From assembly GCA_951813565.1 (NCBI GenBank), contig OX638351.1, forward strand, positions 672,001 to 736,000: DNA of 64,000 nt. Direction: 5' to 3'. Positions 2,664 through 62,418 of this stretch are shown one piece after another (positions within the stretch are counted from its first letter, which is position 1; the number at the start of each line of letters is the position of its first letter). The position numbers and the translations under genes were made by a program. The notes below the pieces were generated by a model. It did no database searches and was not told the origin of the DNA. It was given only the letters and a program-made list of their open reading frames with translations. Origin of the DNA: an uncultured Poribacteria bacterium (GTDB taxonomy: Bacteria; Poribacteria; WGA-4E; WGA-3G).

Positions 2664-2768
2664 GACAAATGCCATACGGGGAATGCCAAAAGGCATTCAT
2701 ACCCGGTGAATGACTAAATGTCATTCATACCGTTGATTTCTTGATTTGGCGCATTTGGCGTTGATTTG
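2664..2768 (+). mobile_element. Nested composite of hairpin-GTTGATTTG micro-elements
   Basis: Interrupts the REP CCGCCCC^GCTGGGGCT (intact copy at ~2607); three nested hairpin units. Confidence 0.75.
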
Positions 2769-3449
2769 GCTGGGGCTGCTCTTATTTGCCATGAGGATCT
2801 TTTTCTGCGAGTTACGTCCCCGTGAAAAACTCAGCGAAAAATGAGAAATACTTGAAAACAGATCATGAAATAGTAGTTCGTCCGTCGGGTAGAGCTTGCG
2901 AAACCCGACAATATAAAGGTTTCAAGGCAAACTGGGCGGGTTTCACAAGGAAATCGTAGGAACACATCAAGCAGGTTGTGATAATAGTATTTCAGTCCCA
3001 ACATGTCGGGTTTCGCATTCGCTCTACCCATAGGTGTAAACTTAAGGATATATCCTCTTGTGGGAGTGAATCAACGCCAAATGCACTTTTTGGCATTTGG
3101 CGGGTTTTCAACCCCGCAGCATGCCATACGCGCATGCTGCGTTGATTTGGATTTTCTGCTTGAATCTCGTTTAATCGGGCGGACAAGGTTTCCCTCCCAC
3201 AAGAGATAATTTAGCAATTTTGTTCTTAAATTGACACTCGCTGAAGAGCGTTTGACATATTCAGAATATACCTAACAAGAAATTACCGAATTAAAAAATT
3301 AATCTTCATTTAGTTTGTGCCTTATGAGACGCAAACTAAAAGTTTGCGCTACAGAAGTGTCCCATTAATTATAGGTTTTACTATAGTTTTAATTCGTGTT
3401 TTTTCAAAGTAGGTACGGTTGAAAAACGCACCCGAATAAGATTGGTAAT

Positions 3450-4310
3450 TTAGGTTGGAAGCGTTGCGTGCGCTGTTACATGTAGAGGTAAGAAGAACGG
3501 GCGTTTTGATGTAAGGACTTCATGGCGGAGTTGTGCTGCTAATGTATCAACACCAACCTGTTCCGCTGTCGCAATCCCGTACTTTTCAATAAGTGGAAGG
3601 AGACTCTGAAAAATAGTTGCCATGTATCGGTACCCTACCCAATTCGCTGCTGCACCGATGGGAGCATGAAGGTGCATCTTTGGTGCTGGCAATCCTACTT
3701 CAACAAAAACACGGTAAAGCCCTATACCCGTGTCCAGATGCGCTCCTGAATGTTTGAATACATCCAAAATCCACTGGTAAAGTTGATTGATAAAGGGTGT
3801 ATCTGGATGTGAATACGCTGGATAGAGTGTGTATTCCGGCTCCTGAAACGCAACAATTCCTCCCGGTTTTAGATGCTTTACGAGTTTTTGCAGCGCATCC
3901 ACGGGGTTAGCCAAATACATTAACACAAACCGACCAACAAGCGCATCAAATTTGTCATCAAGTTCAAGTGTTCGTGCGTCACCTGCGATGAATTCGACGT
4001 TTTTCATACCTGCGTCTGATGCGCGTTGACGCGCCGTTTCAAGGATAGACGGATTGATATCAACGCCAACTACTTGTCCTGATGTGCCAACAAGTTCAGC
4101 AAGCATGAGAGCCGCATCGCCAGCACCGCTACCGATTTCAAGCACCCGCATCCCAGTTCCAATACCCGCACGTTCGCAGAGCAGCCTCGTTGACTCTCCA
4201 TAGATTCTTGACTGCTCAATGAGGCGCGTTGTTTCGTGTGAGGTTCGCCCTAAGGTATAGGTTGCATCGCGATTTGATGCGTGCGAGTTTTGTGAATGAT
4301 TTTCTGCCAT
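3450..4310 (-). CDS. Class I SAM-dependent methyltransferase
   Basis: VLEIGSGAGD motif I and FDALVGRFVL; paralog of the adjacent gene. Confidence 0.9.
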   Translation of the reverse strand: MAENHSQNSHASNRDATYTLGRTSHETTRLIEQSRIYGESTRLLCERAGIGTGMRVLEIGSGAGDAALMLAELVGTSGQVVGVDINPSILETARQRASDAGMKNVEFIAGDARTLELDDKFDALVGRFVLMYLANPVDALQKLVKHLKPGGIVAFQEPEYTLYPAYSHPDTPFINQLYQWILDVFKHSGAHLDTGIGLYRVFVEVGLPAPKMHLHAPIGAAANWVGYRYMATIFQSLLPLIEKYGIATAEQVGVDTLAAQLRHEVLTSKRPFFLPLHVTAHATLPT

Positions 4311-4321
4311 GCGTTGAACTT

Positions 4322-5158
4322 TTAAGTTGGGAGGGATGCATGTGCTGTGACGTGTGGGGGCAGCATAATCGGGCGTTTTGATGCAGCGACTTCTGCTTGT
4401 ATCCGAGATGCAAGCGTGTCTATGTCTACCTCATCAGTAGTCGCAATTTCGTAAGCCTCTATTAACGGTAGGATACTCCGAAAACTATTTTCGAGATATG
4501 CAAATCCGGGCCAATCTTCAGGACCGCCCATGGGCGCTTCAAAATGTAATGCGGGTTCGGGCAAACCAGCATCAACGAAGGCTTTGTAGAGTTCCATACC
4601 CATTTCTACATGTGCGCCAGAACGTTCAAACACGGTGCGCCCCCATTTAATTAAGTCGTTTATCAAAGGTGTATCTGGATGTACAGCAACAGCATAAGGT
4701 GAAAAATCAACCTCTTGGAAAGCAACAATGCCACCGGGATGTAGGTGCGTTGCCAAATGTTTAAGCGCATCTGCTGGGTCTGCCATATACATCAGCACAA
4801 GTCTGCCGACAACGGCATCAAAATCGTTTGGAAGTTCAAGTGTTCGGGTGTCACCTGCGATGAATTCTATGTTTGTCCAACCTGCTGCGTCCGCACGTGC
4901 TTTTGCTGTTTCAAGAATATCAGCGTTAACATCTACACCAATCACAGTTCCCTCGGCACCAACAAATTCTGCAAGGGTAAGCGCAACGTCCCCAGCACCA
5001 CTCCCCACATCAAGGACTTTCATGCCTTTTGCGATGCCGCTCCTCAGAAAAAAACGCCGCGTCACATCCTCATAGAGTTGAGACTGTTTAATCAACCGGT
5101 CTGTTTCAGATTCGCTCCTACCCATTGTATATTCTGCATCTCTGCTTTGATTGCTCAT
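4322..5158 (-). CDS. Class I SAM-dependent methyltransferase
   Basis: VLDVGSGAGD; start set at MSNQSRD behind an AAGGGG RBS, by alignment to the paralog. Confidence 0.9.
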   Translation of the reverse strand: MSNQSRDAEYTMGRSESETDRLIKQSQLYEDVTRRFFLRSGIAKGMKVLDVGSGAGDVALTLAEFVGAEGTVIGVDVNADILETAKARADAAGWTNIEFIAGDTRTLELPNDFDAVVGRLVLMYMADPADALKHLATHLHPGGIVAFQEVDFSPYAVAVHPDTPLINDLIKWGRTVFERSGAHVEMGMELYKAFVDAGLPEPALHFEAPMGGPEDWPGFAYLENSFRSILPLIEAYEIATTDEVDIDTLASRIQAEVAASKRPIMLPPHVTAHASLPT

Positions 5159-5289
5159 GTAAATTTTTTCCCCTTTAAAAATAAAAAAGCAAGACATCAA
5201 CAGTGGAGTGTCCACGTATTTTAGATTTTACTATTATTTGGTATGTGTTAGAGAGCGGTTTGAAGCCGTTCCTAACAAGAAACAAAACT

Positions 5290-7902
5290 TTAGAAAGTAT
5301 AACCGATTTTGGTGTACCAGAAAGCACCACCAAACCCGTAAGGACTATATTCACCGAAGGGTCTACCGACTATAGCACCCGTAAAGTTCTCAATATTTGG
5401 GTCTGACCAAGTAACGTTATTAGGTTCAACATTGAAAACATTATTGACGCCAACCGTTATACCTAAGTTATTAGCAAAGGCGTAATTAAATTCAATATCC
5501 ACTAAAAACACGTCGTCATAAATTTGTGAACCGACAGCATATTCGAACCAAGGTCCGTAGTAATTAACACGCCCCAAAACTCCTAAATTACCTACAACAT
5601 TTTGTGTTAACGTTACGTTTCCGCGGTGCTTGGGTAGCCCTTCTTCTAAGAGTCGGACACGTGTGTCGTCCAAAATATCAGCGTTGCGTTTGGTAACTTC
5701 AGTCTCGGTGTAGTTATAAGCAAGACTTACGACACCTTTAGCGACTGGTGCTGTAAGAACAATGTCAAGACCTTGTGTGCTTGTTTCAAATTCGTTAGTA
5801 AAGAATCGGAATTCTTGCAGGTTTCCGGCACTCGTGATGCCTTCATCAACGAGTTGCTGGATCTGTTCTTCAGTAATATCTTCGCCGCGTAGGAAGTCTT
5901 TAGAGGGCGCCAACCGATCTTCTACCTTGATATTGAAATAATCTATTGTAACACTAACAACATCATCACTAATAACCGTGCCAACAGTAAAGTTTTTTGA
6001 CTTTTCGGGTTCAAGTGCCTTACCACCTACTAAGCCTGCGGCAGCATGCGTAGAAGGAATAGTGCCTTTATTGACCAAGGTATTATTTTCACCGAATTCC
6101 GTTGTGACGTTAAAGGCATTTTGCTGCCCGGGCGTCGGTGCACGAAAACCGGTGCTGTAACTACCACGTACTCTCATGTCAATCGCAGGATCAAGCGAAA
6201 GAAATTCCATGAGGTCGTCGCTGAATGCATAACTTGTTGCGACTTTGTAGTTGATAGTACTACCAAAATCATCAAAATACTCGCCTCGGATAGCAGCGCT
6301 AACAACCCATGGCTCAATCGGTTTCAATTCGGTTTCCAAATATCCTGCAAAATTGGAACGTGTCCAATCGCCTTGCGCAATATCACTGAAGCCAGGAAAT
6401 CCGTTGGAACCCGAACTAAATCCTTGGCTTGCCAATGGCCCAATTTCCCAAGACTCTTTTTGCCCTTGAACAATTTCAAAAGTCTCTGTTCTATATTCAC
6501 CACCTGCGGCAAGAAAGACAAGGTCGTGCAGTGGATAGGTGAGGTCAAGATTAATGTTCGTATCCGCTTGGATATAATCACCCGGGTCGAATTCGGTAGG
6601 TGTATCTGGTCCAAGTGATGCATTCACAGTGTTTTTAATGAAGAAATCAGAGGCGTGGCGTCCATAAGATGCACTTAAATCCCATCCCAAATCCTCAGCG
6701 ACTGATCCTTTCAGTCCAACAAGGACAGAAGCATCTTGTGTATCAGCACCGAAACGAGGTGTGAATCCACCGGGAAAAAGTTCTTGGAAAGTAAAAAGGT
6801 TCGGGTCATCAAAAACCTGTTTTAAAGCCTCTGGGTCTGGAACATTATCGGTTATCTGAACCACAGGAACTTCACCTTCTCCAGACAAACGCCCAACAAG
6901 TAATGTTTCGCCACTGTCGTTACTAAATACGGCAGGTCGAGTATTGGGATTTCGGAAGTAGAACCCACCCTCAACTTGCTTCTGCGCGTAGTTTGCGTGA
7001 CCGTAGAGTTGAATGTTACTAACGATGTCAACTCCGTAGTTTGCAAAAAACTTAATGTCATCCCTAATAATCGGGTGTCCCCACGGTTGTGCGGGGTTGG
7101 CAACATGGCTATTCCCGGCGGCGGAAAGTGCGGCGGCATCGTCTCGTTGCACGGAACGATCTGTCTCGTCAGTGTTACCGTATTCTAAACTGAGGTTTGC
7201 CCATACATCTTCTCTTCCCAAACCGATATTCCCGGCGACGGAATATGTGAGACCGTCACTAAATTGGTATATACCGGGTTTAATTACCAAAGATCCGCCT
7301 TTGTAACTGTCTTTTAATTGTAAGTTCATCACACCGGCGATAGCATCGGAACCATACTGTGCGGATGCACCATCCCGTAACACTTCCATCTGTTTAATTG
7401 CAATCGCAGGAATAGGCGATAGGTCTGCACCTTGCGAACCATCGGACAATCCGTTGCCAAGCCAAGTAATCACAGATGCGCGGTGCCGACGTTTGCCGTT
7501 GACGAGTAACAATGTGTGATCGGGTGCTAATCCCCTTAGATTTGCAGGACGCACGACGGTCGCTGCATCGGCGATAGGTTGTGCATTTACATTGTAGGAG
7601 GGCACCAAATTCCTCAACAAGTCAGGCATATCTGCCCCACCCTGTTTAACAAAATCATCGCTGAGCACGACATCAATCGGAACAGTCGACTCAAGCACGG
7701 AACGCGGTTTGGCACGTGTGCCGACAATAACCAAACCTTCAAGTTCCACGACTTCTTGATCAGATTCTGCTTCGCTTGATTCAGTTTCAGTATCGCTTTC
7801 TTCATGGTTATCTGCTACAACCACAGGTAAGAAGACCATGAAAACTGCTAATGCTATGTAAAATGCATGAACAAGCGGTTTAATATTAATTGTACCTTTC
7901 AT
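5290..7902 (-). CDS. TonB-dependent outer membrane receptor
   Basis: Signal peptide, TonB-box-like LVIVGTR, plug LRGL..DHTLLLVNGKR, EVLRDGASAQYGSDAIAGV, C-terminal Phe. Confidence 0.95.
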   Translation of the reverse strand: MKGTINIKPLVHAFYIALAVFMVFLPVVVADNHEESDTETESSEAESDQEVVELEGLVIVGTRAKPRSVLESTVPIDVVLSDDFVKQGGADMPDLLRNLVPSYNVNAQPIADAATVVRPANLRGLAPDHTLLLVNGKRRHRASVITWLGNGLSDGSQGADLSPIPAIAIKQMEVLRDGASAQYGSDAIAGVMNLQLKDSYKGGSLVIKPGIYQFSDGLTYSVAGNIGLGREDVWANLSLEYGNTDETDRSVQRDDAAALSAAGNSHVANPAQPWGHPIIRDDIKFFANYGVDIVSNIQLYGHANYAQKQVEGGFYFRNPNTRPAVFSNDSGETLLVGRLSGEGEVPVVQITDNVPDPEALKQVFDDPNLFTFQELFPGGFTPRFGADTQDASVLVGLKGSVAEDLGWDLSASYGRHASDFFIKNTVNASLGPDTPTEFDPGDYIQADTNINLDLTYPLHDLVFLAAGGEYRTETFEIVQGQKESWEIGPLASQGFSSGSNGFPGFSDIAQGDWTRSNFAGYLETELKPIEPWVVSAAIRGEYFDDFGSTINYKVATSYAFSDDLMEFLSLDPAIDMRVRGSYSTGFRAPTPGQQNAFNVTTEFGENNTLVNKGTIPSTHAAAGLVGGKALEPEKSKNFTVGTVISDDVVSVTIDYFNIKVEDRLAPSKDFLRGEDITEEQIQQLVDEGITSAGNLQEFRFFTNEFETSTQGLDIVLTAPVAKGVVSLAYNYTETEVTKRNADILDDTRVRLLEEGLPKHRGNVTLTQNVVGNLGVLGRVNYYGPWFEYAVGSQIYDDVFLVDIEFNYAFANNLGITVGVNNVFNVEPNNVTWSDPNIENFTGAIVGRPFGEYSPYGFGGAFWYTKIGYTF

Positions 7903-8032
7903 AATTTGCTCTCTCTTTTTGTATGAAAAATACTTATGCGACAACGGCACTTATAAAGTTTGGTAGACGTGAATTGCCCGCTTTTGTAGAAAGCAGGTTT
8001 ACAAACACGTCTACCGAGTTTTTGTTACATAT

Positions 8033-14255: not shown

Positions 14256-14436
14256 TGCAGTCCACCATCTCATAAATCAATGGGTGTTCCGCAAATGCCC
14301 GCTAATTTGGCGTTGATTTGAACATGGTAGCAGGCACGCTCCGCGTGCCGTAGCGGGTTACGGTATACGGAGTATGTCTACTACTTTGCACTATCTCGTA
14401 GATTGGGTTTCACCTACGCTTTATCCAACCTACGAA

Positions 14437-18167: not shown

Positions 18168-18616
18168 GAAAAGGGATCAGATTACCGAATTAATAACTTA
18201 ATCTTCATGAAAACGCGCTTACCTTTGGGTAATAAATCCAAATCAACGCTGAATGCGCGTTTAGGCATTCAGCGGGCTTACAAAACCCTCCCATAAGAGG
18301 TAATTCAGTAATTATGTGCTTAAATTGACAGTTATGGGTAGAGTGCAAGCAAAACCTACCAAATCAACGCTGAATACGAGTTCGGATTCCGGGCCAAACC
18401 ATATTCAGTGCTAACAGGGATATTTAACCATTTCTCACATGTACTTGTTACGTTGATTTGGCGTTGATTACGCGCAGCATTGCCCAAACCCGATAGGTGC
18501 GGTTAGAAACAGCGCCTACCAAGGTAGAACAGCATCGGCGCGGGGAAACCCTGAAACTCCCCTACAATGTTAAATAAGACGTGATGCCAAATTAACACCG
18601 ATACCCTTAATATGTA

Positions 18617-18773
18617 CAGGACTTACGCAATTTTCATGATTTTTGCAATAATTACGGTTAAAATAGCGTAATTTTTAGCAGAGTTCTGAACTATGGCGCT
18701 TTTACAAAACGCCAAATCAACGGTCCGAATGCCATTTAGGCATTCCCCGCCTACCGCGTGTGCGTAAGCCCTG
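18617..18773. mobile_element. MITE with CAGGACTTACGCA termini and 5-bp TSD
   Basis: TIR 12/13 match; ATGTA on both flanks; related copy at ~2106-2219. Confidence 0.75.
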
Positions 18774-19107
18774 ATGTAATAAATTGTTGGGTTTCCGGTT
18801 GTTCCAACTAACTTATACCATTTCTAAATTATAACTTCCCATTTACAAAAAACGCGTTTAATGTGAATGTCGGACGCACATTCACCAAGCGCAATTCATT
18901 GCGCCTCGGACATTCAACATAAGATAAGTTTCAAAATCTCATAGAATCTTCGTAATGGTATTTTATTTATTAGAATTGGTATTATAGACTATTGATCGGT
19001 ACGCTTAGGAAAACATACCTACCGTTGTCTTATATCTTAATATGTTAACATATACCTTAATTTTTATCAAGCTTTTTACATTATAAATGGTATGTGCATA
19101 ATTATTC

Positions 19108-19452
19108 GAGGGGTGTGCATAAATAATTCCGATGTTAAATATGCGCTTAAAGGTAGTCCGCACACGCCGTGGGTTTCCATCCACAAGTTCAAAGAGGCGC
19201 AGCATGCCACACGGGGAATGCCATAAGGCATTCGGACCCGGTGAATGACTAAAGACGAATGCGCTTGGTAGAATACGCTTTTGGTATTCTACATGATTCG
19301 CCATGATTCATACCGTTGATTTCTTGATTTGGCGCATGCTGCGTTGATTTGGCAATAAATTGCGCGACTACAAACGCATTGCTATAAATCAAGCGGCACC
19401 TGGCGTCTGTCCTTGTCTGTGTTGATACGCCAAATATTTATGCACACCCCTC
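19108..19452. mobile_element. MITE with 18-bp TIRs and 8-bp TSD
   Basis: GAGGGGTGTGCATAAATA / TATTTATGCACACCCCTC; AATTATTC duplicated at 19100-19107 and 19453-19460. Confidence 0.85.
19199..19351 (+). mobile_element. Multi-level nested hairpin-TGATT composite
   Basis: Inserted in AAGAGGC^GCAATAAATTGCGCGACTAC; near-identical inverted copy at 25927-26088 and a variant at 28436-28588. Confidence 0.8.
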
Positions 19453-20017: not shown

Positions 20018-20250
20018 AATCTTTAGCACAGATATAGGCGCGCTTACATGAAGATTAAAAAATGAATTCGGTAATATTGCAGAGAAACTCGGTGCGATTA
20101 GATGAAGTTTAAGAAAATAAACCGGTAATTTGGCGAGGTTAGGAAAACTCGCCAGCAGAGGTGGACACCTGCCTTGTGCGGACGGAAAAATACCGAAAGA
20201 ATAAATTAATCTTCATGAAATCGCACCTACCGGGTTTTAGCTGAATAACT

Positions 20251-20330
20251 TGAAATTTTCGCAAAAAATGGAGAATTTTCGCAAAAAATGGAGAATTTTC
20301 GCAAAAAATGGAGAATTTTCGCAAAAAATG
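20251..20330. repeat. Tandem repeat, 4 x 20 bp (GAGAATTTTCGCAAAAAATG)
   Basis: Read directly; first copy degenerate in its first bases; no spacers. Confidence 0.95.
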
Positions 20331-25926: not shown

Positions 25927-26088
25927 CCAAATCAACGCAGCATGCGCCAAATCAAGAAATCAAGAAATCAACGGTATGAATCATGGCGAATCATGTAGAA
26001 TACCAAAAGCGTATTCTACCAAGCGCATTCGTCTTTAGTCATTCACCGGGTCCGAATGCCTTATGGCATTCCCCGTGTGGCATGCTGC
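25927..26088 (-). mobile_element. Nested hairpin-TGATT composite (inverted copy of 19199-19351)
   Basis: Near-identical reverse complement with one extra AAATCAAG. Confidence 0.8.
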
Positions 26089-28103: not shown

Positions 28104-28701
28104 TATTTCCATTCAATGGGTACACGTCCATAGAATGGTAAAAGGGATCGGGAATCTCGATTCATAATCTATGGTGAGGTATAAAAAAGTAGGCACTCGC
28201 TGTAGGCGCGATTTGTAAACGTGCTGATCACAGCGTATAGTTAATTGTAAATCTAACGTGTTGTGCTAAATACTTATTTGTAAAATATTGTTTCACAATT
28301 ACATGACGTTTTGTTAGTTTTTATCATTAGTTGATTCCTTCTTCAGTCCCGACAAATGCCATAAGCACATTTGACGTTGATTTGGTAGGGACGATATGTT
28401 TATAGAAAAACGTTGAACACCCTATCTTTAGCCCCGCCAAATGCCATACGGGGAATGCCAAAAGGCATTCATACCCGGTGAATGACTAAAGACGAATGCG
28501 CTTGGTAGAATACGCTTTTGGTATTCTACATGATTCGCCATGATTCATACCGTTGATTTCTTGATTTGGCGCATTTGGCGTTGATTTGGTAGGGACGATA
28601 TGTGTATAACATGAGTTCAATATGTGTGAAAAGAATACAAACAAATAGTTAACTAACACAAGTCGTAAATCTACTATAATTCTTTTGGAGTTTTAACAGA
28701 T

Positions 28702-37696: not shown

Positions 37697-38500
37697 GGAT
37701 CTTTTTAATTCCTTTTCCAGTCGGTTCTCCTATAGCTGCATATATCAATTATAAAGTATACCATATTGTGTGGTGAAAATCAAGTTTTTTGTTGAATAGG
37801 CAGGGTTATTTAGTTTTAAGAATTATCAGTTACTGAGTTTTACTGTGAGTTTATATCGTCCGTCGGGTAGCGCTTACGAAACCCGACAAATGCCAAAAAG
37901 CGCACTTGACGTTGATTTGGACATGGTAGTAGGCACGCGCCGCTTTCCGTCCGAAAGCCAAGAAATTACGGCACACGGCGTGTGCCTACTACTTTGCATC
38001 GCACATCTTTTTTGTAAGTTGAGGCTATGGATAGAGTGATAGCGAAACCCGACCACAATGCTGCTATAAAACATTAACGTTTGTGATGAAATACGCCAGA
38101 AAAACCGAAAACTAAATAACCCTATTGGATAGGTATGTACAGTTTTTGTAGATTGTCTGAACCAAGATTTGCAAGATTATAGGATTTCCAAGATTAGTCT
38201 TATGCTGTGCGGATGCTCACCATCCTGTAAATCTGGAAATTCTGATAATCTTGGTTCAGACAAGGATAAAACCTTGTAATACCAATTCTAATAGAAAACG
38301 TATCATTACAGAGATTTACTGGGATTTTGAAACTCGACGAATGTGAATGTAAGAGGCGCAATGAATTGCGCGACTACAAACACGTTTTTTGTTAATGATG
38401 ATCTATCATTCAGAAATGGTATAATATCGGACTTACAAAGTCCTCCTACAAGAAAGGGGCGCGACAATCTATTAAAATGTGGATAGAATTGGCGCGTAAT

Positions 38501-45338: not shown

Positions 45339-47017
45339 CTTACTATTACCCATAAGTCGAAATTCTTACTATTGATCATAAATTCGACATAAAGTGCAGA
45401 CATCTATTTTCTTGATTTACATTCACCTGTGCTGTCAAGATAAGTGTATTTTCGCTTGGGTCATTGGGTCATAATATACTTGCATATCAAGGACATTTGT
45501 GTTATGTTCAATAGATATTATTACCAACACAAGTAACACTTATGGATCTGATACATTGGAGTGAATAATGATGTCTACAAACAAGAAAGAGTTATCTACA
45601 TCTTGGAGTATTGAAGAGTTTACGGGTCTTGATTTGGGAGATGCCCGTCTAAATAAAAGGTTGCTCAGCGTTGCAGATGCGTTGGCGGCACATCCTACCG
45701 CAACCATCAACGCTGCGTGTGGCGATTGGGCATCGGTGAAGGGTGCCTATCGTTTATTTGATAATGAAAAGGTTTCTTCAGAGAAGATATTGGCACCTCA
45801 CTTTAGACAGACGATTGCGCGGATGTGTGCGTATCAGCGTGTGTTTGCTATACAAGATACAACCTATCTGGATTACACCGATCACCCGTCAACAGAAGGT
45901 TTAGGTCCGATTGGTGCCTCGTCTCATCACCATTATGGTTTTGTCAAACACACGACACTCATCGTGAGTGGGTCGGGGCTCCCGCTTGGGTGTTTGACAG
46001 ATAAAGTGTGGGTTCGGGATGCGCCGACACAAGAAAAAAAACGGAAATCCAGACCGCTGGTAGAAAAAGAGAGCTACAAGTGGATTGAAGCAGTGTCGGC
46101 AATAAAATCCGAAGCCCCAGAAGGTGTTGAGGTGATTTGCATTTGTGATCGTGAAGCTGATATTTATGAGTTTTTCGTTGAAGCACAAGAGATGCCTTTT
46201 GTAATGCGTGCTGCGCAAGATCGTGTGGTTGATAATGATGTTGGTAGATTGCGTGCTTTAGCAGAAAGTCTACCGGTTGCTGGTGAGTTTAGCATACAAG
46301 TTGCAGCGCGTGGTGCCCAACCTGCCCGAGAAGCAACTCTGAGCGTTAGTTTCACAAAAACGACGCTTCTCCCACCGCATCGTTCGCAAGCATCACGCTC
46401 CCAAGAGCTGCCTGCTGTGGAAATATATCTCGTATGGGTGATAGAGACGAACCCACCCGATGGCACAACACCTGTGGAATGGCTGCTCCTTACAAATGTG
46501 AAAGTCACAGATTTCTCAGATGCGATTGAACGGGTAGACTGGTATACGCAACGCTGGCACATTGAAGTCTATTTCAAAATCCTCAAATCAGGAACGAAAG
46601 TTGAGGAAGTCCGCTTCCAAACCCAAGAGAGACTCCTACGCTTTATTGCCCTGCTGAGCGTGATTGCTTGGCGTCTTTATTGGTTGACAATCATCAATCG
46701 GCAGGCACCGGATACGGACTGCACACATATATTGACTGAAGTTGAGTGGAAAGCACTTTACTGTATAACACATAAGACGCACATTTTACCGAAAAAACTG
46801 CCAACTGTGTCTGAAGTCGTTGTTTGGATCGCCAAACTGGGTGGCTTTTTAGGACGAAAGTCCGATGGTAAACCTGGAGTGACCGTTATTTGGCGAGGAT
46901 GGCAAAGGCTTAGTGATATTTCTGACACCTTTGCTCTTTTTCACCAATACACACAAAACAATATCGGTCAGAACCTTATTGATGGACATGTTCCATAAAC
47001 TTATGGGTAATAGTAAG
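45339..47017 (+). mobile_element. Complete IS4-family (IS50/Tn5-like) insertion sequence, 1679 bp
   Basis: Perfect 19-bp TIR CTTACTATTACCCATAAGT; 9-bp TSD CCTTGACAA at 45330-45338 and 47018-47026. Confidence 0.96.
45568..46998 (+). CDS. IS4 family transposase
   Basis: LGDARL..R, IQDTT, DREADIYE, Y..RW.IE.YFKILKSG, LGGFL.RK.DG.PG. Confidence 0.96.
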   Translation: MMSTNKKELSTSWSIEEFTGLDLGDARLNKRLLSVADALAAHPTATINAACGDWASVKGAYRLFDNEKVSSEKILAPHFRQTIARMCAYQRVFAIQDTTYLDYTDHPSTEGLGPIGASSHHHYGFVKHTTLIVSGSGLPLGCLTDKVWVRDAPTQEKKRKSRPLVEKESYKWIEAVSAIKSEAPEGVEVICICDREADIYEFFVEAQEMPFVMRAAQDRVVDNDVGRLRALAESLPVAGEFSIQVAARGAQPAREATLSVSFTKTTLLPPHRSQASRSQELPAVEIYLVWVIETNPPDGTTPVEWLLLTNVKVTDFSDAIERVDWYTQRWHIEVYFKILKSGTKVEEVRFQTQERLLRFIALLSVIAWRLYWLTIINRQAPDTDCTHILTEVEWKALYCITHKTHILPKKLPTVSEVVVWIAKLGGFLGRKSDGKPGVTVIWRGWQRLSDISDTFALFHQYTQNNIGQNLIDGHVP

Positions 47018-50080: not shown

Positions 50081-50830
50081 CTCCTCCCCCAGTGACTATA
50101 ATCACTACCTTCATAAATAGTCACGTAAATTTGGGGACAATTCCGACATAAAATCGTATATTTTAGAAAATTTTGATTTATGCGTCCGTATATATAGTGA
50201 CCTTTAGAATTAACAGGACATTTTGAGTTGTAGGAGGGAACTCTGATTCCCGACTATCAATGCGTTTTGTCGCGATTCGGAGATCGCTCCCGCCAAATGC
50301 CAAAAGCGCATTTGGCGTTGATTCACAGAAAATGTGCCTCTTTAATTTCAAAGTTCACCATACAACTAATTTAATCTTAATACATGTCTATCGGTACTGA
50401 AATTTCCGTAGTCGATTTGATAACAAAGCAAATAAACTAAAATACGGTCAGAGTTGAAACTTCTTATGAAACAAGACTTATGTAAAACGTCCAGCATGGA
50501 TTCACTAAAACAGTGGTATATAATACCCTTTATAATTTAAGACACAGTATTATGCCGGAAAGGGTGCATAGCATAAAAAATATTGGGTCTCATCTAAAAA
50601 TAGATTTGCGTTAGTCCAATATAAAGATAATTTTAGTGTGTAGGGTTCATGTTGGGTTTCGTTCCTCAACCCAACCTACAATATAACCTTTTAGGAACAC
50701 GCATCAATTGGTAATTCTTAAAACTAATATCCCTGGCAAATACTACTTGTCTATTGTCAATTTTCAATCTATTGTGATACAATAATTGGAAATAGAGAAA
50801 TCTACTTCATTTGGATTATTGGAGGACTAT

Positions 50831-51958: not shown

Positions 51959-52281
51959 GCTCCGTAAGTCTATTTGATTTCAACTTTTTAGATTTTTGGA
52001 AGAAAGTAGCGAGCTGGAGGTCGCTCCTACAGTAAGTGTTTGGAATTACTTGAACACTCTGCGCCAGCGAGGTTAGGAAACCTCCAAATCAAGAAATCAA
52101 CGCTACAAATGCCATTTAGGCATTTGGCGGGTATGAATGCCATTTAGGCATTCCCCGCCTACCGGTGTGAATGTAAGAGGCGCAATGAATTGCGCGACTA
52201 CAAACGCACATAAGGATTTGGGGAGTCGCGAGCTGGAGCTCGCTTCTACAGTAAGAGTTTGGAACTTGCGAGGAGATAAAG

Positions 52282-53082: not shown

Positions 53083-53102
53083 ACCAAGAAAGGAATTTTA
53101 TA

Positions 53103-54204: not shown

Positions 54205-54648
54205 ATGAAAACCTTTACACTTACAACAGAACAGCTGATTGAGAAACCGCGGGATGAGGTTTTTTCATACTTTTCGGATGCACATAACCTGGCAGAAATT
54301 ACGCCGCCATGGCTCAAATTTGTGGTGCTTACGCCTCGTCCGATTGAAATGGAAGTTGGCACCCTGATAGACTACCGTTTAAAGCTCCGTGGTATTCCTG
54401 TTCGATGGCAAAGCGAAATAACAGAATGGAACCCTCCACATTTTTTCGCAGATGAACAACGTAGAGGCCCCTATCGATGCTGGATACATAAGCATACATT
54501 TGTTGAAACTGATGAGGGAACACTTGTAGGAGACGAGGTCGAATACGGTGTGCTGGGAGGACAACTGATCAACAAATTTTTGGTTCGACCTGATATAGAA
54601 AAGATTTTTGAGTATCGTTCACAAAAATTGCTGGAATTATTGAATTAA
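54205..54648 (+). CDS. SRPBCC family protein
   Basis: VFSYFSD..NL..ITPP, F.DEQ.RGPY..W.H.H.F. Confidence 0.88.
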   Translation: MKTFTLTTEQLIEKPRDEVFSYFSDAHNLAEITPPWLKFVVLTPRPIEMEVGTLIDYRLKLRGIPVRWQSEITEWNPPHFFADEQRRGPYRCWIHKHTFVETDEGTLVGDEVEYGVLGGQLINKFLVRPDIEKIFEYRSQKLLELLN

Positions 54649-55148
54649 AGCAACGTCTATAATCATTGATTTAGTCTCTGTAATGATCTTTCACACACAA
54701 TTTTAAATGTAAGAGGCGCAATAAATTGCGCGACTACAAACATGTTTTTTGTTAATTAAAAGCGGTCATTCAAAATAGTATAATATAACGTGAGTTTGAT
54801 AATTAAATTGAATATAATAGGTTGGGTAGAGCGAAGCGAACCCAACAATTCAACCATCTTGACAGTCCTAAAGAGTTGGGTTTCACTTATTTTTCAGAAA
54901 TGTAGACCTCAAATGGGTCAACAACCTCTCTTTAGAGGCTGTTTTTTATTGCCCATTTTCGTTCTATCTCACCGAATGCCATAGGCGCATTCGGTGTTGA
55001 TTCCCTACGGGATTTATCAAATTCACGTTAATATAGGCGCGGTTACAAACCGCGCCTACAAAAAGAGTAGACATATAAGAGCAGTTATAAACCGCCCAAT
55101 CAACGCCTTATACGTGTATGGTATTCGGTGCCTACAGAGGTTCACAAA

Positions 55149-56141
55149 CTATTCGTCAAGCCAACTCATCATACTACGTAAATTTTTTCCTACTTCTTCA
55201 ATTTCCAATGCTGACTCCTGCCGTCGAAGTGCTTGCAGGACTGGTTGATTTGCCTGATTCTCAACTACCCATTCTCGTGCGAAGATACCGCCTTGCACGT
55301 CTTTTAGTATCTGGCGCATTCTGTCCCGAACACTATCGTCAATGAGTTGTGGACCGCGCGTCAGGTCTCCATATTCAGCGGTATTACTAACATCGTTCCG
55401 CATTTTGCTTAAGCCACCAGTATAGATGAGGTCAACAATCAACTTCAATTCGTGAAGGCATTCAAAATATGCCATTTCGGGTTGATACCCTGCTTCAACG
55501 AGTGTATCAAACGCTGCTTTAATTAGGGCAGCAGTGCCACCACAAAGCACAGCTTGTTCACCAAAAAGGTCGGTTTCAGTTTCTTCGCGGAATGTGGTTT
55601 CAATCACCCCAGCGCGTGTGCCGCCGATGCCTCTTGCATAAGCGAGTGCTATATCGCGAGCAACACCTGTTGTATCTTGATGGATAGCAATAAGACACGG
55701 CACGCCACCACCACCTTCAAATACTTCGCGGACGAGAGAACCAGGTCCTTTTGGGGCAATCATGGTTACATCAATATCATCGGCAGGGACAATCTGCCCA
55801 AAATGGACGCTGAATCCGTGCGATACCATCAACATGTTTCCAGCCTGCATATTTGGTGCGATCTCATCACGATACACGGCAGAATGTTTTTCGTCAGGGA
55901 TTAGAATCTGGACAATGTCTGCCATTGCTGAGGCTTCTTCAACTGTTTTGACAGTGATTCCTTCTGCTTCTGCGCGTGCTTTTGAACGGCTGCCTTTGTA
56001 TAATCCAACAATAACGTTCGCGCCGCTATCTTGAAGATTTAGTGCTTGTGCCCTACCTTGCGCGCCATAACCGATGATGGCGACGGTGCGTTCTTTCAGT
56101 AAATCAAAATTGGCATCGCTATCGTAATAAATTGTTGCCAT
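55149..56141 (-). CDS. ilvC: Ketol-acid reductoisomerase
   Basis: [28 protein letters not shown]. Confidence 0.98.
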
Positions 56142-56426
56142 AAAATCTTTCCTCTCTTGAATCTTAGTAATAACGTCTATCCAGTCTATAGGGTTATTTA
56201 GTTTAAGAATTGCCGGTTGATAAGTTTTACTATGAGTTTAAGTTTTGAGTGGCAGGTGCGGCTTCCTAACCAATGCAGGTAGTTTGTGCCATTCAAGTCC
56301 GCAAACTAAAAGTTTACGCTACAAAATCTTGGTGAATAATGAATCATTCATAATTAAAAACGGTATCTGCATGTCTAAATCTTATAGGTAGCAATTTGGG
56401 TTATATTATACATTGTGCAATCACTT

Positions 56427-57338
56427 TTATTTTACTTTTTCAGGTTGCAGGTTCACAAGATAAATTCCTGCTGCCACTAATCCAGTGCCCACCAATAAGC
56501 TAGCCGTTAGCGTATCGCGTAAGAATAAGTTGCTAAACAATACTCCCGACACCGGCATGAGAAAAGAAAAGACCACCAGTTTGCTTGCTTTGTATTTTCT
56601 TAGCACCGATGTCAAGACTAAAAAGCAGAAGCCTGTGACAATCCATCCTTGGTAAAGCAAACCAGCACTGCTTGCCAATGTCCACTCAATAGGTTTGTTA
56701 CGTTCAAATAGATAGCTTAAAAAGAAAAAAAACGGAATGCTTAAACCTAATAACCAGACGAGGAGTCGATACGGATAAATCTCTTGAACAAACAATTTTG
56801 TCAACGTAATGCGGAATGCAAGCAAACAAGCCGACAACGTTACAATCAAGTCGCCGATGAGATGCTCCACAACACCCACGCCTTGTAGATTCGGTGCGAG
56901 CGCTACAAACATACCGCCGAACGCGGCGAGGATTCCTAATAACTTTGTGGGAGAAAGTCGATCACCCAGAAGCCAGAAATGACCGAACAGGACCACAAAT
57001 ACTGGATACAGTGTATGACAAATAGTAGAACGCGAAGCCGTCGTGAATTGCGTGCCGACATTCATTGTAATTGTATGTAATGCCTGGAGTGCTGCAAGCA
57101 AGAGTAACCGGGGCAACTCCTCAAAACGCAATCGCATTGACACCCCATAGCAGAATCCTATCCCTCCAACAACGATAAGACCTAATATGCTACGCAAAAG
57201 TGCCATTTTCAGTGGTGGGAAGCCTTGCAAACCAATTTTAACAGATAATGATCCCGCACCTAAAAGAGAAACAACAAACAATATGAGGACTATAATCTTA
57301 CCGGAGGGATCTTCATTTCTAAATTCTTTTTCTATCAT
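56427..57338 (-). CDS. EamA/DMT family transporter
   Basis: About 10 TMs, FPP....LR, GD.I, P..GV. Confidence 0.85.
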   Translation of the reverse strand: MIEKEFRNEDPSGKIIVLILFVVSLLGAGSLSVKIGLQGFPPLKMALLRSILGLIVVGGIGFCYGVSMRLRFEELPRLLLLAALQALHTITMNVGTQFTTASRSTICHTLYPVFVVLFGHFWLLGDRLSPTKLLGILAAFGGMFVALAPNLQGVGVVEHLIGDLIVTLSACLLAFRITLTKLFVQEIYPYRLLVWLLGLSIPFFFFLSYLFERNKPIEWTLASSAGLLYQGWIVTGFCFLVLTSVLRKYKASKLVVFSFLMPVSGVLFSNLFLRDTLTASLLVGTGLVAAGIYLVNLQPEKVK

Positions 57339-57889
57339 AAATACTTTCTTGCCTTTGTAGTGCCTCGTGAGCTCCCAATGGTAAGTCCATAGATGAGGGA
57401 CTGTGTTTCCTGTTCTTCTGCGTGGAGGATTGATGTTGCAGCCCCAAATATTACATATTACTTCGATTTCTCACATTTACCTCCGTTGTTTTGATATAAC
57501 CTATCTTTAGAGAGATTGTTCATTGGTAGGTATTGTTTAAGTAATACCACTTCTATATGATAATAGGACATTATTTCGTAGGTCGGGTAGAAGCGTTAGC
57601 AAAACCCGACTTTTTATGGTGTCTGCCCGTTGCATGGCACGTCCTGCACAGTGGCGGGGCACCAAATCAAGAAATCAACGGTATGAATAACATTTAGTTA
57701 TTCACCGGGTATGAATGCCTTATGGCATTCCCCGGGACCCCGCCCTACAGTGGAAAACGCCGCGTAATCATTGCAAATTGAACCTATGTAACCAAATATT
57801 TACACACCCGTGACAATTTGTCAATTAGAAATGATATGATGATATGGGAAAGTAACTAACCGGAGAATTGAAGGCTACACTAACAAGTC

Positions 57890-58387
57890 CTATTTTGTAG
57901 TACCCCGCATCATCGCTACTTTGCCAGTGCGCGATAATTCAAGGATACCGTAGGTATTGAAAATATCTATCGCCGCTTTCAATTTACCCTCATCCCCAGT
58001 AATTTCAAGCACTAAAGAGGCAGGTTTCATATCAATAACACGTCCACGGAAAACCTCTGCAACTTGTAGAATCTCGGTACGTTTTTGCGGATCATCGGTC
58101 GCAACCTTGATAAGAACGAGTTCACGTTCAACATGTGTTCCGGTGGTTAGGTCTGTAACCTCAATAACGTCAATTAACCTATTCAGATGCTGATAGATCT
58201 GATCAATTATCTGTGCATCCCCATGTGTAACAAGCGTCATGTGTGAGATGCTCTTGTCGTGGGTTTCGGCGACGTTGAGACTGTCAATATTAAAGCCGCG
58301 TCCACTAAAAAGTCCCGCCACGCGTGCAAGGACTCCAAATCGGTTTTCAACCAAAACTGAAAAAATATGTCTTTCTTCTTTGCTCAT
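57890..58387 (-). CDS. ilvN: Acetolactate synthase small subunit
   Basis: SVLVEN.FGVLARV.GLFS.RGFNIDSL ACT domain; ERELVLIKV. Confidence 0.96.
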   Translation of the reverse strand: MSKEERHIFSVLVENRFGVLARVAGLFSGRGFNIDSLNVAETHDKSISHMTLVTHGDAQIIDQIYQHLNRLIDVIEVTDLTTGTHVERELVLIKVATDDPQKRTEILQVAEVFRGRVIDMKPASLVLEITGDEGKLKAAIDIFNTYGILELSRTGKVAMMRGTTK

Positions 58388-58777
58388 TTTCTATATTAAC
58401 TTTTACACCGCTTGTTAAATCGGTTGTTGATTTGTAGGTTATTATGTCTGAACCAAGATTAGCAAGATTATAGGATTTTCAGGAATAGCATCTTCTAATA
58501 CCAATTCTATGAATTATTTTCCCTTTTGAAAAATGTAAGAGGCGCAATAAATTGCGCGACTACGAACGGTCTATTTCAAAATAGTTATTTTTGAGACATG
58601 GTATAATGTAATGTCTTTTCACAAGATAGGCATAATTGCTTATCAAGCATTAACATCTATCCGTTGAAAAACATATATCTTCACAGCAATCCTGAAAATC
58701 TGTCAATCCTGAGAATCTTGGTTCAGACATACTACTCAATTAGGGAATAATGCAGTATAATCACATAACACAAGTAT

Positions 58778-60460
58778 TTAGGACAGTCCGCGGATAACAT
58801 CCCCAAGTCCTGCTCCTGCTGGTACCATCGGGAATACGTTCTCCTCTTCATCAACGATAAAGTCAATAACAACAGGACCGTCATTGATTCCTTTTGCTTT
58901 TAGCAATGCAGGCTCAACATCTTCAGGATGTTCAACGCGAAGACCAGTTGCACCGAATGCTTGCGCAAGCAATGCGAAATCGGGGTTGTCGTGATAATCC
59001 ACAGCGGAATAGCGTTTGTGGTGGAAAAGTTCCTGCCATTGCCGCACCATCCCTAAATACATATTGTTGATGATGAAGATTTTAAGTGGCAACTTCATTG
59101 TAATCGCGGGCACTAATTCTTGAATGGTCATAATATATGAGCCATCACCGTTAATATTGACAACGGTTTTGTCTGGACATCCGAGTTGTGCGCCGATTGC
59201 TGCAGGAAGACTGAATCCCATTGTGCCGAGACCACCCGAGTTCAACCATTGACGCGGTTCAGTAAATTTGAAGTATTGTGCTGCCCACATCTGGTGTTGC
59301 CCAACATCCGCTACGACAATCGCATCGCTGTAATGTTTATAAATCTGCTCTATGACATATTGTGGCATCACCTTATCGGCTTTTTGCTCATATTCAAATG
59401 GATACTTCTGTTTCCACTCCTGAATTTGCGTGCGCCATGGGTCAATATCTGCTGTGTCGACCTGCTTATTTAATTCAGTAAGGACATTTTTCGCATCGCC
59501 AACAATTGGAACATCTACGGGTACATTTTTCCCAATACAGGACGCATCAATATCAATATGGATTTTTTTAGCATTGGGAGCGAATTTGTCAAGGTCACCG
59601 GTAACCCTATCATCAAATCTTGCACCGATTGCAATAACGAGATCAGCATCGGTGAAAGCATAATTGGCACAGCAAGAACCGTGCATTCCGGGCATCTCCA
59701 TCGCCAATGGATGTGTTTCGGGAAACGCGCCAAGTCCCATCAATGTGACGGTAATAGGGATACGCGTTTTGAGAGTTAACTCTTGCAGTTCTTTGCTTGC
59801 ATTTGCCAGCACTACACCACCACCAGCATAAAGCATCGGTTTTTCTGCTTCCTTAATTAACGCTGCGGCTTTTGCGATTTGCGCGGGATCACCATGCACT
59901 TGCGGTTTATAACTGCGAATATCAACTGTTTCTGGATACTTAAACAGAGTCTCATTTCTCTGAGCATCTTTAGCAATGTCAATAATAACGGGACCAGGTT
60001 TTCCAGTACTTGCGATGTGGAATGCTTCAGCGACAACGTCTGCCACCTCATCACAACTTTTGATGAGATAACTGTGCTTACATATTGGTCGGGTTACGCC
60101 AATAACATCACATTCTTGAAAAGCATCGCTGCCAATCCAGTGGGTAAACACCTGTCCGGTAATCGCTACCATCGGAATAGAATCCATATAGGCTGTTGCG
60201 ATTCCAGTGACGAGGTTAGTTGCACCTGGACCGGAGGTTGCCAGTGCAACACCAACTTTTCCAGTGGCGCGCGCATATCCATCGGCAGCGTGAGAAACTC
60301 CCTGCTCATGCCGCATCGGAATCAATTTCAATTCTGTTTCGTCGTATAGAGCATCGAAAATCGGCATTGCCGCGCCACCGTTCACACCGAAGATATATTC
60401 GACACCTTCACGTTTGAGACAATCAACCAGGATTCTTGCTCCTGAAAGTTCCATGCCCAT
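58778..60460 (-). CDS. ilvB: Acetolactate synthase large subunit
   Basis: RHEQG, TSGPGATN, GARFDDRVTG, GDGS..M, LGMVRQWQ. Confidence 0.98.
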   Translation of the reverse strand: MGMELSGARILVDCLKREGVEYIFGVNGGAAMPIFDALYDETELKLIPMRHEQGVSHAADGYARATGKVGVALATSGPGATNLVTGIATAYMDSIPMVAITGQVFTHWIGSDAFQECDVIGVTRPICKHSYLIKSCDEVADVVAEAFHIASTGKPGPVIIDIAKDAQRNETLFKYPETVDIRSYKPQVHGDPAQIAKAAALIKEAEKPMLYAGGGVVLANASKELQELTLKTRIPITVTLMGLGAFPETHPLAMEMPGMHGSCCANYAFTDADLVIAIGARFDDRVTGDLDKFAPNAKKIHIDIDASCIGKNVPVDVPIVGDAKNVLTELNKQVDTADIDPWRTQIQEWKQKYPFEYEQKADKVMPQYVIEQIYKHYSDAIVVADVGQHQMWAAQYFKFTEPRQWLNSGGLGTMGFSLPAAIGAQLGCPDKTVVNINGDGSYIMTIQELVPAITMKLPLKIFIINNMYLGMVRQWQELFHHKRYSAVDYHDNPDFALLAQAFGATGLRVEHPEDVEPALLKAKGINDGPVVIDFIVDEEENVFPMVPAGAGLGDVIRGLS

Positions 60461-60515
60461 TTACCTCATAAACGGTAGTAGACACACTCTGTTGTGTCGT
60501 GATTTGTTGAAAGTA

Positions 60516-60830
60516 AAAAACCCTCTCGTTCCACTTTGGAGACGAGAAGGATACGTAAAATAACCTTACCGTGGTACCACTCCAATTCTCTCCCTTGTTT
60601 CAAAGAATAAGGTTTTTACCTTACAGAACAAGGAAAAGCACTCTTGGGATGCAATAACGGACATCACACCGACTAACCCTACTTATCGCGATTCGGAGAT
60701 CGCTCCTACAGTTGTTCAGATTAGCAGCTCCAGGGCGACCTTCAGTCTTTAGGTACTTGGGAAAACCTTTCAGCCAATGAGTCTTCCTCTCTTGCAAGCC
60801 CGGAGGACCTACTCCTCCCCTTCAACGCTT
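60516..60830 (-). ncRNA. T-box riboswitch (probable Val, GUC specifier) with terminator
   Basis: Minus strand: AGTA, AGAGA and GCTGAAAG stem I motifs; GAAG-GTC-G specifier (60737-60739); T-box GTGGTACCACG (60570-60580); terminator hairpin plus U run; upstream of ilvB. Confidence 0.9.
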
Positions 60831-60912
60831 TTTAGTAATCTATTTAATTTTATTACACACCGTTTTTCCTAACAATTACCGGCGTTTGAAATGTATTATC
60901 TGTATCCTTATA

Positions 60913-60941
60913 ATTATAATATCATTAAGAGGAAATGTCAA
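60913..60941 (-). promoter_or_regulatory. Consensus sigma70 promoter of the T-box/ilv operon
   Basis: TTGACA-17 bp-TATAAT on the minus strand. Confidence 0.8.
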
Positions 60942-61035
60942 GAAAATTGTTGACAAACCTCCCAAAAGTTCAGTTGCCGTAGCCTCAATCAGAAGATTGG
61001 GACTACGGATAATGGATTCTTCTAATGAAGGTCAA

Positions 61036-61848
61036 CTATCTTAGGGACTTTATCTGTCCCCACACAACGCTAACTTTATCCGTAGGGTCTACCGATTGTG
61101 CTTCAGCAAAACGATTTGAAATAAGTTCTGCATATTCGGTTGCGACTTGTTCGTTTCCAGGTATTGCAGTGCCGCAACAAGAGGTATGGAAATTGATAAA
61201 CCATCCCTTCATATCTTCTGTTCGATAAGCAATTGGATCGGCATTTGTGCCATCATCTGCATAACTTTCAAACTCAAAATCATTTTGTTCCAAAACATTA
61301 AGACCTGCTGGACGATTCGAAGTCCATTTTTCGAGAGAAGGTATGTACTTTTTACCGAGCTCTGTCGGAGACACGTTTGCTACACTGGCATTGGTAACGG
61401 TAACCCCAAACACCTTTTGCTGTCCTGCTCCCGCTGCGGTAACTCGTGCATTTGCACCAAAATCCCAAAAATAGTAGAAGGGATAATCTCCAATGAAGCC
61501 ACCGATACCACCATCTCTCAACCATGAATAAATTGGGTCCTCTTTACCTTTATTTTCAAAAATTGTTTCAGGTGTATTTCCCTGTGTAAGAATATAGATG
61601 CCTTTCGGGTTCGCATCCATATATTCTGCTAAACCTTCAGCGTCAACAATTTCCGCAGTCAGTTTTTCATCTTGAAGTTTTTCTACAATTAGTTCTGCTA
61701 ACTGTTGTGCCCCCGCCACCCCACCTGTAATACCTAAGCCAGCGCCATTTTCCATTTTTCCATCGTAAACGACAGCGACATCTTGTCCGAAACTGTAACT
61801 CACGAAAGTTAGAGCGATAATTGATACAAAGCAAAATACCCTTTTCAT
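61036..61848 (-). CDS. Secreted hypothetical protein with C-terminal SVDPTDKVSVVWGQIK motif
   Basis: Signal peptide and shared tail motif. Confidence 0.75.
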   Translation of the reverse strand: MKRVFCFVSIIALTFVSYSFGQDVAVVYDGKMENGAGLGITGGVAGAQQLAELIVEKLQDEKLTAEIVDAEGLAEYMDANPKGIYILTQGNTPETIFENKGKEDPIYSWLRDGGIGGFIGDYPFYYFWDFGANARVTAAGAGQQKVFGVTVTNASVANVSPTELGKKYIPSLEKWTSNRPAGLNVLEQNDFEFESYADDGTNADPIAYRTEDMKGWFINFHTSCCGTAIPGNEQVATEYAELISNRFAEAQSVDPTDKVSVVWGQIKSLR

Positions 61849-62050
61849 TGTCCGGTCCTCCTAATTAGGAACTCAAATTGGTTTTAACATTATTGAATCT
61901 TCGCTTGATGATTCAGTATAACACGTTTGGACAGAATATTATAGTAAATTGTGATTCAGCATTCAACGATTCATCTTCAGTTTCTGAAAGAATCGTTGGT
62001 TGTGTAGGTGGATGGGAAGTCGGCAGCGTGTGGATGCTATTTAGGAAATA

Positions 62051-62418
62051 GGGGCAGATTGGGGACCGCCCCATAAGTGTAAACTTAAGAAAAAAATGCT
62101 GGCTCATCTCTTGTGGGAGGGCTTTCTAAGCCCGATTTTGCGAGACTCAAGCTGTTAAATCCAAATCAACGCAGCATGCGCCAAATCAACGCAGCATGCG
62201 CCAAATCAACGGTATGAATGCCATTGAGGCATTTGGCGGGTATGAATGCCTGTTGGCATTCCCCGTCCGGCATGCTGCCAAATCAACGCTGAATGCGCGT
62301 TAGGCATTCAGCCAAATCAACGCAGCATGCGCGTATGGCATGCTGCGGGGTTGAAAACCCTTCCACAAGAAGAAATTTCCTTAAATTGACACCTATGGGG
62401 CAGATTGGAGACCGCCCC
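62051..62418. mobile_element. MITE-like element between duplicated REPs containing a dense array of hairpin-TGATT units
   Basis: CATAAGTGTAAACTTAAG...CTTAAATTGACACCTATG flanked by two GGGGCAGATTGG.GACCGCCCC copies; five CCAAATCAACG within 62161-62321. Confidence 0.7.

Follow-up and report, generated by a model that had tools for sequence, protein, structure and literature searches.

How does a piece of DNA of about 35 bases, with no gene of its own, come to occupy some 18 places within a single stretch of a bacterial chromosome? The stretch considered here (hereafter the window: 64,000 nt, positions 672,001 to 736,000 of contig OX638351.1) belongs to an uncultured Poribacteria bacterium, and the sequence in question, hereafter the unit, is a short hairpin followed by a one-sided GTTGATT tail. 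An examination of the letters alone (the sequence-only reading) had listed 18 such loci and regarded them as a minimal mobile element moved in trans, probably by a HUH-type single-tyrosine (Y1) transposase encoded elsewhere. The unit is a structure-constrained, gene-less, non-autonomous mobile DNA that inserts in one orientation, immediately after a C and without target duplication, and is among the smallest mobile DNAs. Coordinates are positions in the window unless a genome label precedes them, G000 being the window's own genome (5.43 Mb, single contig) and G001, G006 and G023 other genomes of the same genus.

The consensus unit is composed of a C, a 9-bp arm, a loop of 7-8 nt, the partner arm and GTTGATT with 0-2 variable bases, giving a length of 33-36 bases. 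Since the leading C is paired with the tail's G, the stem comprises 10 bp with an invariant C:G closing pair. This C:G foot and the tail never vary, and pair 3 is often an A.G mismatch. A second subfamily, 36 nt long, has a bulged stem. Each of the 18 loci was found to hold a unit or a decayed copy (Table 1), the stems being broken at 14291, 18359 and 55097. Eight window copies fold with z = -3.1 to -4.9, and the loci at 2664, 19199, 25927, 28436, 52085, 57663 and 62161 are nested composites of 2-6 units each. An Rfam scan of the window returned no match to the unit, its sole match being a T-box. An assembly artefact is excluded, since the units are intact, with 0-1 differences, in contigs from three independent public runs that extend over 18179/18250-18841.

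The stems quoted in the sequence-only reading as differing yet paired are present and covary. In a set of 38 distinct arm pairs from five species, picked without any pairing test, 92% of cells pair and two-sided changes occur at 7 of the 10 pairs, a score reached by 0 of 500 shuffles; slid alignment controls score 0.03-0.09, as opposed to 0.37 for the true pairing. A permutation on 96 arm pairs at four positions unused in selection gave 285 paired cells out of 384 against 222 +/- 8. As the sequences are related, these figures are not probabilities, and fold-back repair could create part of the stem compensation.

Within G000, 294 of the 2358 GTTGATT sites abut a perfect stem of at least 7 bp, while each of eight control heptamers does so at 0-4 of 565-1650 sites. 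With a looser pattern of arm plus tail, 870 copies were found in 522 clusters. The unit is restricted to one genus of sponge-associated Poribacteria: one unit pattern matched 24 of 24 same-genus genomes and 0 of 16 others, the tail exceeded its reversed control in 40 of 40 genomes of the genus (13-519 vs 0-8), and a sample of the phylum recovered the unit in 28 of 28 members of the genus (2-324 matches) and at chance level (0-2) in 63 others. In a wider database scan, 78 of the 80 titles listed (from 112 loci) were Candidatus Poribacteria, the one named exception does not pair, and the holders are sponge metagenomes wherever the source is labelled. Viral contigs gave 36 matches to the unit pattern, none above 6 of 9 pairs, and 0 matches to a second pattern; a plasmid collection gave no match to the unit.

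This strict restriction, which no tested Y1 gene follows, raises the possibility that the unit is moved by another class of enzyme specific to the genus, for example a Cas1-related one or one borne by a phage or plasmid. The unit has the length of a spacer, and a single phage- or plasmid-like island in G023 concentrates many of its copies. Cas1 integration duplicates a repeat, however, and no such duplication is seen at units. Moreover, apart from an integrase, the island proteins contain no HUH enzyme, reverse transcriptase or transposase match, whether among 77 proteins searched with Pfam or 42 with PHROGs. Such an enzyme appears quite improbable. The island itself (G023:C1, about 4,350,000-4,469,000) is a 110-kb integrated region of low coding density that holds about 40 of the 104 tails of this genome and encodes a Rep3 initiator, ParA, an integrase, portal, major head and tail tube proteins, a type ISP restriction-modification system and many WD40 proteins. 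It is a possible carrier of the unit between species.

Mobility is documented by sites that are filled in one genome and empty in another. When G000 was compared with 1.2 Mb of G006, 71 gap events touched the motif, most of them whole host repeats gained or lost, and at least four of the events listed consist of the unit alone. The 72-nt composite at 52085 is cleanly inserted at C^G (the caret marking the insertion point), and its orthologue in G006 is empty. The same holds for an ISAs1-like transposase, whose copies at G000:C1:3913161 and 4876827 each gained 12 residues from an in-frame 36-nt unit, clean at C^G, while the G006 copies are empty. At G000:1450948, TA is replaced by C-unit-C and the orthologue is empty; one copy in G006 sits at C^C. 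An in-frame 36-nt unit, clean at TCC^G, likewise adds 12 residues to a putative lipoate-ligase-like gene, so named from its sequence (G000:C1:4511527-4512346); among 29 loci, this site is filled in G000 and two relatives, empty in 23 and uninformative in four. One would expect to find the 12-residue peptide specified by the unit in other Poribacteria proteins as well. Of 635 top-level loci, 383 have a paralogous empty allele. Within species, the contigs of public runs, which break at repeats, yielded no trustworthy empty allele. Together with covariation, nesting and the absence of a coding partner, the empty orthologues bear out the minimal unit moved in trans.

The insertion points themselves obey a rule on one side only. 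The TG-tailed class (484 of 870 copies, and a further 98 in which an 8-nt tail repeat is added) is mostly clean at C^G in about a dozen host contexts. G is the next base after TG in 459 of 463 cases, and a T is missing from one common TG context. Most copies with CA, CC, CG, TA or TC tails either carry in a 5' C of their own and take the place of 0-4 target bases following CC, or are found at C^C. Their replaced-base targets read CC-T-AC, CC-TA-ACC, CC-AG and CC-AA, and the dinucleotides cut are C^T, C^A and C^C. Hence the hairpin end is fixed and the tail end variable. In the window, the empty form of the repeat at 50291 reads CC-T-ACAG (63 copies, as opposed to 0 for the C^ form), at 57663 one T has been lost relative to the empty repeat (61 copies vs 0), and at 54970 two bases are replaced, judged against a single empty homologue. 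For the C^G examples previously put forward, empty strings were found 3-41 times in the genome. The earlier claim of insertion at C^G without target duplication thus holds as regards the lack of duplication and, for the TG class, the site, but C^G is not a general rule. Upstream bases may be CCC, TCC, GGC or TAC, so there is no fixed target of 4-5 nt; CCC precedes perfect-stem units in 103 of 169 contexts and bulged ones in 20 of 107, these contexts not being independent. This account of the junctions rests on hand-read classes and orthologues. A strict automatic classifier labelled 47 of 61 classes as replaced, a figure that overstates imprecision since any polymorphism is counted in this way. 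A rule by which the extra tail base would be the complement of the lost base fitted three classes but not most of the rest.

A retro-element could also leave a precise first junction, a variable second one and small losses of target; in this scheme a short RNA (leader, then hairpin) would be reverse-transcribed from the target nick. The tolerance of A:U, G:U and U:G pairs, as well as a weak sense bias between co-directional genes (185 vs 147, for copies that are not independent), would agree with an RNA stage. On the other hand, no promoter or RNA support was found, the window has no Rfam match besides the T-box, and of the two reverse transcriptases of G000 one is linked to CRISPR and cas1 and the other stands alone without units at its ends, which leaves this route as improbable as the genus-specific enzyme. 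The former lies between a CRISPR array and a cas1-like gene (G000:C1:3988991-3996100), and the stand-alone enzyme, of 511 aa, is encoded at 811749. The position of the junctions largely refutes an integron-like route, in which a tyrosine recombinase would use the folded strand as an attC-type site. Conservation of structure over sequence and the GTT at the hairpin foot, where the tail starts, recall such sites, but the junctions do not fall at G^TT, the tail is wholly inside the insert, no cassette arrays occur and the only tyrosine recombinase match in G000 is 207 aa long; we regard it as barely credible.

More serious is the suggestion that host repair copies the unit in: a nick after C would prime synthesis, followed by a template switch to another copy through CC/CG microhomology of 1-3 bases, synthesis across hairpin and tail, and imprecise rejoining. 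No dedicated transposase is needed for this, as the nick may come from any nuclease, RAYT (REP-associated tyrosine transposase, REP standing for repetitive extragenic palindrome) included, and some unit-rich genomes have no Y1 gene. The extra 5' C and variable tail bases look derived from donor flanks, the losses of 0-4 bases come with 1-2 bases of microhomology, and 13 symmetric leader-hairpin-tail forms show fold-back copying, which could also make part of the covariation. Copying of this kind sits poorly with a 5' boundary and orientation that are fixed, and a length that is nearly so, across the whole genus, with the almost constant G after the TG tail, and with the lack of any captured flank longer than 2 bases. 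On balance it seems somewhat unlikely.

The HUH/Y1 mechanism of the sequence-only reading remains the best guess. In its present form, the unit may be moved as single-stranded DNA, in trans, by a HUH tyrosine transposase of the RAYT/TnpA-REP type, to which we would give slightly less than an even chance. The enzyme would nick the target after C (C^G, C^T, C^A or C^C), the free 3'-OH would be joined to, or extended with, the hairpin end of the unit, and closure of the tail end would be clean at C^G sites or else follow the loss of 0-4 bases from the would-be phosphotyrosine side. If the tag rule of REPs applies by analogy, cutting at C^G would be directed by the CG foot, and the retention of its C even where the target lacks one would be accounted for. 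The absence of duplication is a HUH-like trait, as is the single hairpin with a conserved flank that, on the reverse strand, lies 5' in the position of the REP tag. The sites on record for TnpA-REP enzymes are C^T, C^A and, once the tag is altered, C^C, the C keeping a free 3'-OH and the next base a phosphotyrosine (PMC8266576); the non-TG classes show the same three dinucleotides. Alternative cuts with host trimming have been proposed to diversify and amplify bacterial interspersed mosaic elements (BIMEs), including tandem copies (PMC3333891). The fixed C-side junction, the losses on the other side and the arrays of units match this combination of cutting and trimming. That host REP families flank RAYT genes in the genus was also counted in favour of a RAYT-type enzyme. 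At least six RAYT clades occur in the genus, each with a different flanking REP family, including GTTG- and GTGG-tagged ones.

Several observations weigh against this RAYT-type transposition. G000 contains ten Y1 matches, five of them IS605 TnpA and five RAYT-like genes; two of the latter are broken, and the intact ones are at C1:242023, 5070803 and 3098010. Among the Y1 loci of the genus listed, RAYTs are flanked by host REPs and nearby units are only passengers; none is bounded by the hairpin and tail of the unit as its own repeat, as the sequence-only reading had suggested looking for, and no REPtron was seen among them. No Y1 match lies within 1.5 kb of 125 metagenome unit loci, whose largest common neighbour family (WD40-like) is found at nine of the 125. 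Both G001 (102 tails) and G023 (104 tails, one contig) are without a Y1_Tnp match, a point that weighs less in so far as RAYT genes can be lost while their repeats persist (PMC3333891). Conversely, the tested RAYT clade is common in taxa that lack the unit, being present in 23 of 26 genomes from a sister genus and in 21 of 23 from two other families. No orientation bias was seen along the G000 chromosome, the skew being too weak to place replichores; an apparent replication-strand bias in a partial listing vanished genome-wide. In addition, IS200/IS605 joints are precise and those of the unit often are not, C^G is not among the TnpA-REP sites reported in the part of PMC8266576 covered here, insertion in coding DNA far from any REP needs explaining, and paralogous empty alleles may differ from the true pre-insertion state.

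Other searches for a mover were equally unrewarding. The ends of the five TnpA-bearing IS605 copies of G000 are unrelated to the unit, in a comparison confined to TnpA-bearing families. The link drawn earlier with the TTGAT target motif of ISDra2 looks coincidental in this light: in ISDra2, TTGAT is reportedly the flanking target and not part of the element, whereas here it is inside the unit. G000 (95% complete) has no PF01548 match that would denote IS110, a control search being positive in 6 of 14, and an IS91-type Y2 search gave no match, as did its positive control. As to an autonomous long form, the orphan arms and tails listed, together with 16 inverted pairs around open reading frames (ORFs), yielded only ordinary genes located between independent insertions.

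A bolder version of single-strand transposition takes the unit for an entire transposon of 35 bases whose one hairpin does duty for both ends. The CG foot would guide C^G cutting, much as the last two bases of GTAG guide C^T, and a dumbbell-shaped single-stranded circle would be the moving form, with an enzyme not yet tied to any mobile element. This is unlikely; if true, it would define a new minimal class and offer a possible scar-free, structure-programmed insertion tag.

Whatever moves it, the unit is not confined to one kind of target. It enters at least ten REP families, a non-GTAG repeat in G001, coding DNA and itself. Within another unit its positions are the loop, the 3' foot and the 5' C^G; the last is re-created by each insertion, so that arrays grow. 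Among simple-unit loci, 54 of 321 hold 2-9 units, and composites reach ten tails. Copies are mostly intergenic (7 of 543 top-level loci lie wholly within long ORFs). Of 219 distinct left contexts, 86 (39%) are repeats. Compared with the 8.7% that repeats contribute to distinct intergenic CCCG contexts this is a 4.5-fold excess, but counted by CCCG sites, of which repeats hold 42%, there is none; REP targeting may therefore reflect opportunity and not preference. The earlier view of the unit as a parasite of REPs stands in that many REP families are entered, and falls short in that in-frame coding inserts, self-nesting and these proportions show no REP specificity. Many filled copies lie in inserts of 130-280 nt resembling MITEs (miniature transposable elements with inverted repeats), TA-flanked or directly repeated, so that copy number overstates insertion events: much of it is passive, through amplification of host MITEs and REPINs (inverted REP doublets). 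Nesting reaches four levels (MITE, REPIN, unit, unit). Several MITE-like families, with TA flanks or direct repeats of 4-9 bp, bear REP pairs, for instance at 54800-55030 and 19060-19450 and among the gaps between G006 and G000.

Table 1. Units, composites and remnants in the window, with the state of the insertion site where it could be read
Position	Strand	Feature	Site and evidence
2664..2768	+	Nested composite: an outer unit holding a bulged one in its loop, with a third at the foot of the bulged one	Clean at C^G in GCCCC-hairpin REP; empty string in 3 copies; folds
3067..3101	-	Single unit, CA tail	At C^C in GTGG-tagged REP
3116..3149	+	Single unit taken as prototype; stem GCAGCATGC, tail TG	Clean at C^G; empty string in 41 copies; folds
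14291..14320	+	Decayed unit with erosion of 5' arm and loop	
18239..18273	-	Single unit, GCTGAATGC stem	Clean at C^G; folds; spanned by contigs of three runs
18360..18393	-	Decayed unit, end approximate	
18452..18471	+	Tail remnant, additional to the 18 loci first listed	
18713..18748	-	36-nt bulged-stem unit	At C^G after GTAG tag; empty string in 19 copies
19199..19351	+	Five-level nested composite	Clean at C^G in GCGCAAT-hairpin REP
25928..26088	-	Nested composite resembling 19199, plus one additional tail repeat of 8 nt	
28351..28384	+	Single unit	Clean at C^G in GTCCC/GGGAC hairpin loop
28436..28588	+	Nested composite	Host repeat of the family seen at 28351
37885..37919	+	Single unit	Clean at C^G; empty string in 7 copies
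50291..50324	+	C-tailed unit with its own 5' C	Replaces T of the CTAC end of a REP; 63 vs 0 copies
52085..52156	-	72-nt two-unit composite	Orthologous site empty in G006; clean at C^G
54970..55003	+	C-tailed ACCGA-stem unit	In TA-flanked MITE-like repeat; about 25 passive copies
55096..55129	-	Decayed ACCGA-stem unit	
57663..57733	-	Two-unit composite	One target T lost relative to empty REP; 61 vs 0 copies
62162..62346	-	Three units arrayed head to tail, bearing nested insertions	In GTGG-tagged REP

Set against known systems, the unit works like REP/REPIN elements and palindrome-associated transposable elements (PATEs) and resembles the small dispersed repeats (SDRs) of Nostoc, while failing the tests that define a REP, a REPIN, a MITE or an attC site. 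With REPs, REPINs and BIMEs and their RAYTs it shares a hairpin of 20-50 nt, hundreds of intergenic copies and a one-sided, single-stranded conserved flank (PMC8266576, PMC3333891, PMC3116915, PMC3733652), as well as tandem copies, the absence of target duplication and cuts after C. Unlike REPs, it has no GTAG/CGTC tag and no REPtron, its 5' flank comes from the target on one strand and is AATCAA on the other, its stem sequence varies while pairing is kept, its main site is C^G, and it nests in itself and in REPs. What moves is not an inverted doublet, as in a REPIN, but one hairpin, which orthologous sites show to have been inserted on its own. Singlet REPs were called remnants and no singlet excision is recorded in the portion of the REPIN study considered (PMC3116915), which makes a mobile single hairpin unusual.

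PATEs and other non-autonomous IS200/IS605 derivatives are likewise gene-less, hairpin-defined and free of duplications, and are moved in trans by a Y1 enzyme, as proposed for the unit (PMC10055086, PMC3333891). They possess left and right ends, two subterminal hairpins and precise joints (PMC10055086), whereas the unit has one hairpin flush with one end; moreover, the unit does not match the ends of the TnpA-bearing IS605 copies of G000 and has no long partner among the matches listed. Rickettsia palindromic elements (RPEs) are also non-autonomous and found in frame in genes (PMC3733652). MITEs, which here are hosts of the unit, have terminal inverted repeats and target-site duplications; the unit has neither, its ends are asymmetric and it is one third or less of their size. 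An attC cassette is characterized by the G^TT crossover and an IntI gene, and the unit shows neither. Judged by description, the SDR1-8 families of Nostocaceae are, like the TG class, tiny modules precisely inserted in a short palindromic target. Elhai et al. 2008 are said to describe SDRs of 21-27 nt, with in-gene copies. SDR5 inserts precisely into HIP1 (PMC4390886). The unit is set apart from these, again by description, by its other phylum, greater length, one-sided tail, base-replacing junction class, self-nesting and arrays. The openly readable literature, with subscription journals and supplements outside this scope, gave no account of this family in Poribacteria or of nested short mobile palindromes.

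Besides the units, the window contains a T-box leader (Rfam RF00230) upstream of ilvB-ilvN at 60535-60834 (-), IS4-family and ISKra4-family transposases at 45568-46998 and 63161-63976, and, at 20243-20322, a 20-nt sequence repeated four times head-to-tail upstream of a long A+T-rich region that precedes a 1563-aa ORF. In G000, GATC (0.54) and CCGG (0.64) are under-represented relative to their parts, while CpG overall is not depleted, which suggests restriction or methylation pressure.

How REP-like hairpins spread was described as a mechanism that remains to be elucidated (PMC8266576), largely because insertion events are rarely caught. In this genus, the insertion of single hairpins is legible to the base, since empty alleles are available in repeats, genes and the unit itself; the empty and filled pairs supply defined substrates and targets, as well as junction rules, with which insertion could be tested directly in vitro. 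In addition, four-level nesting reshapes the intergenic DNA of a widespread sponge symbiont and adds 12-residue peptides to its proteins.

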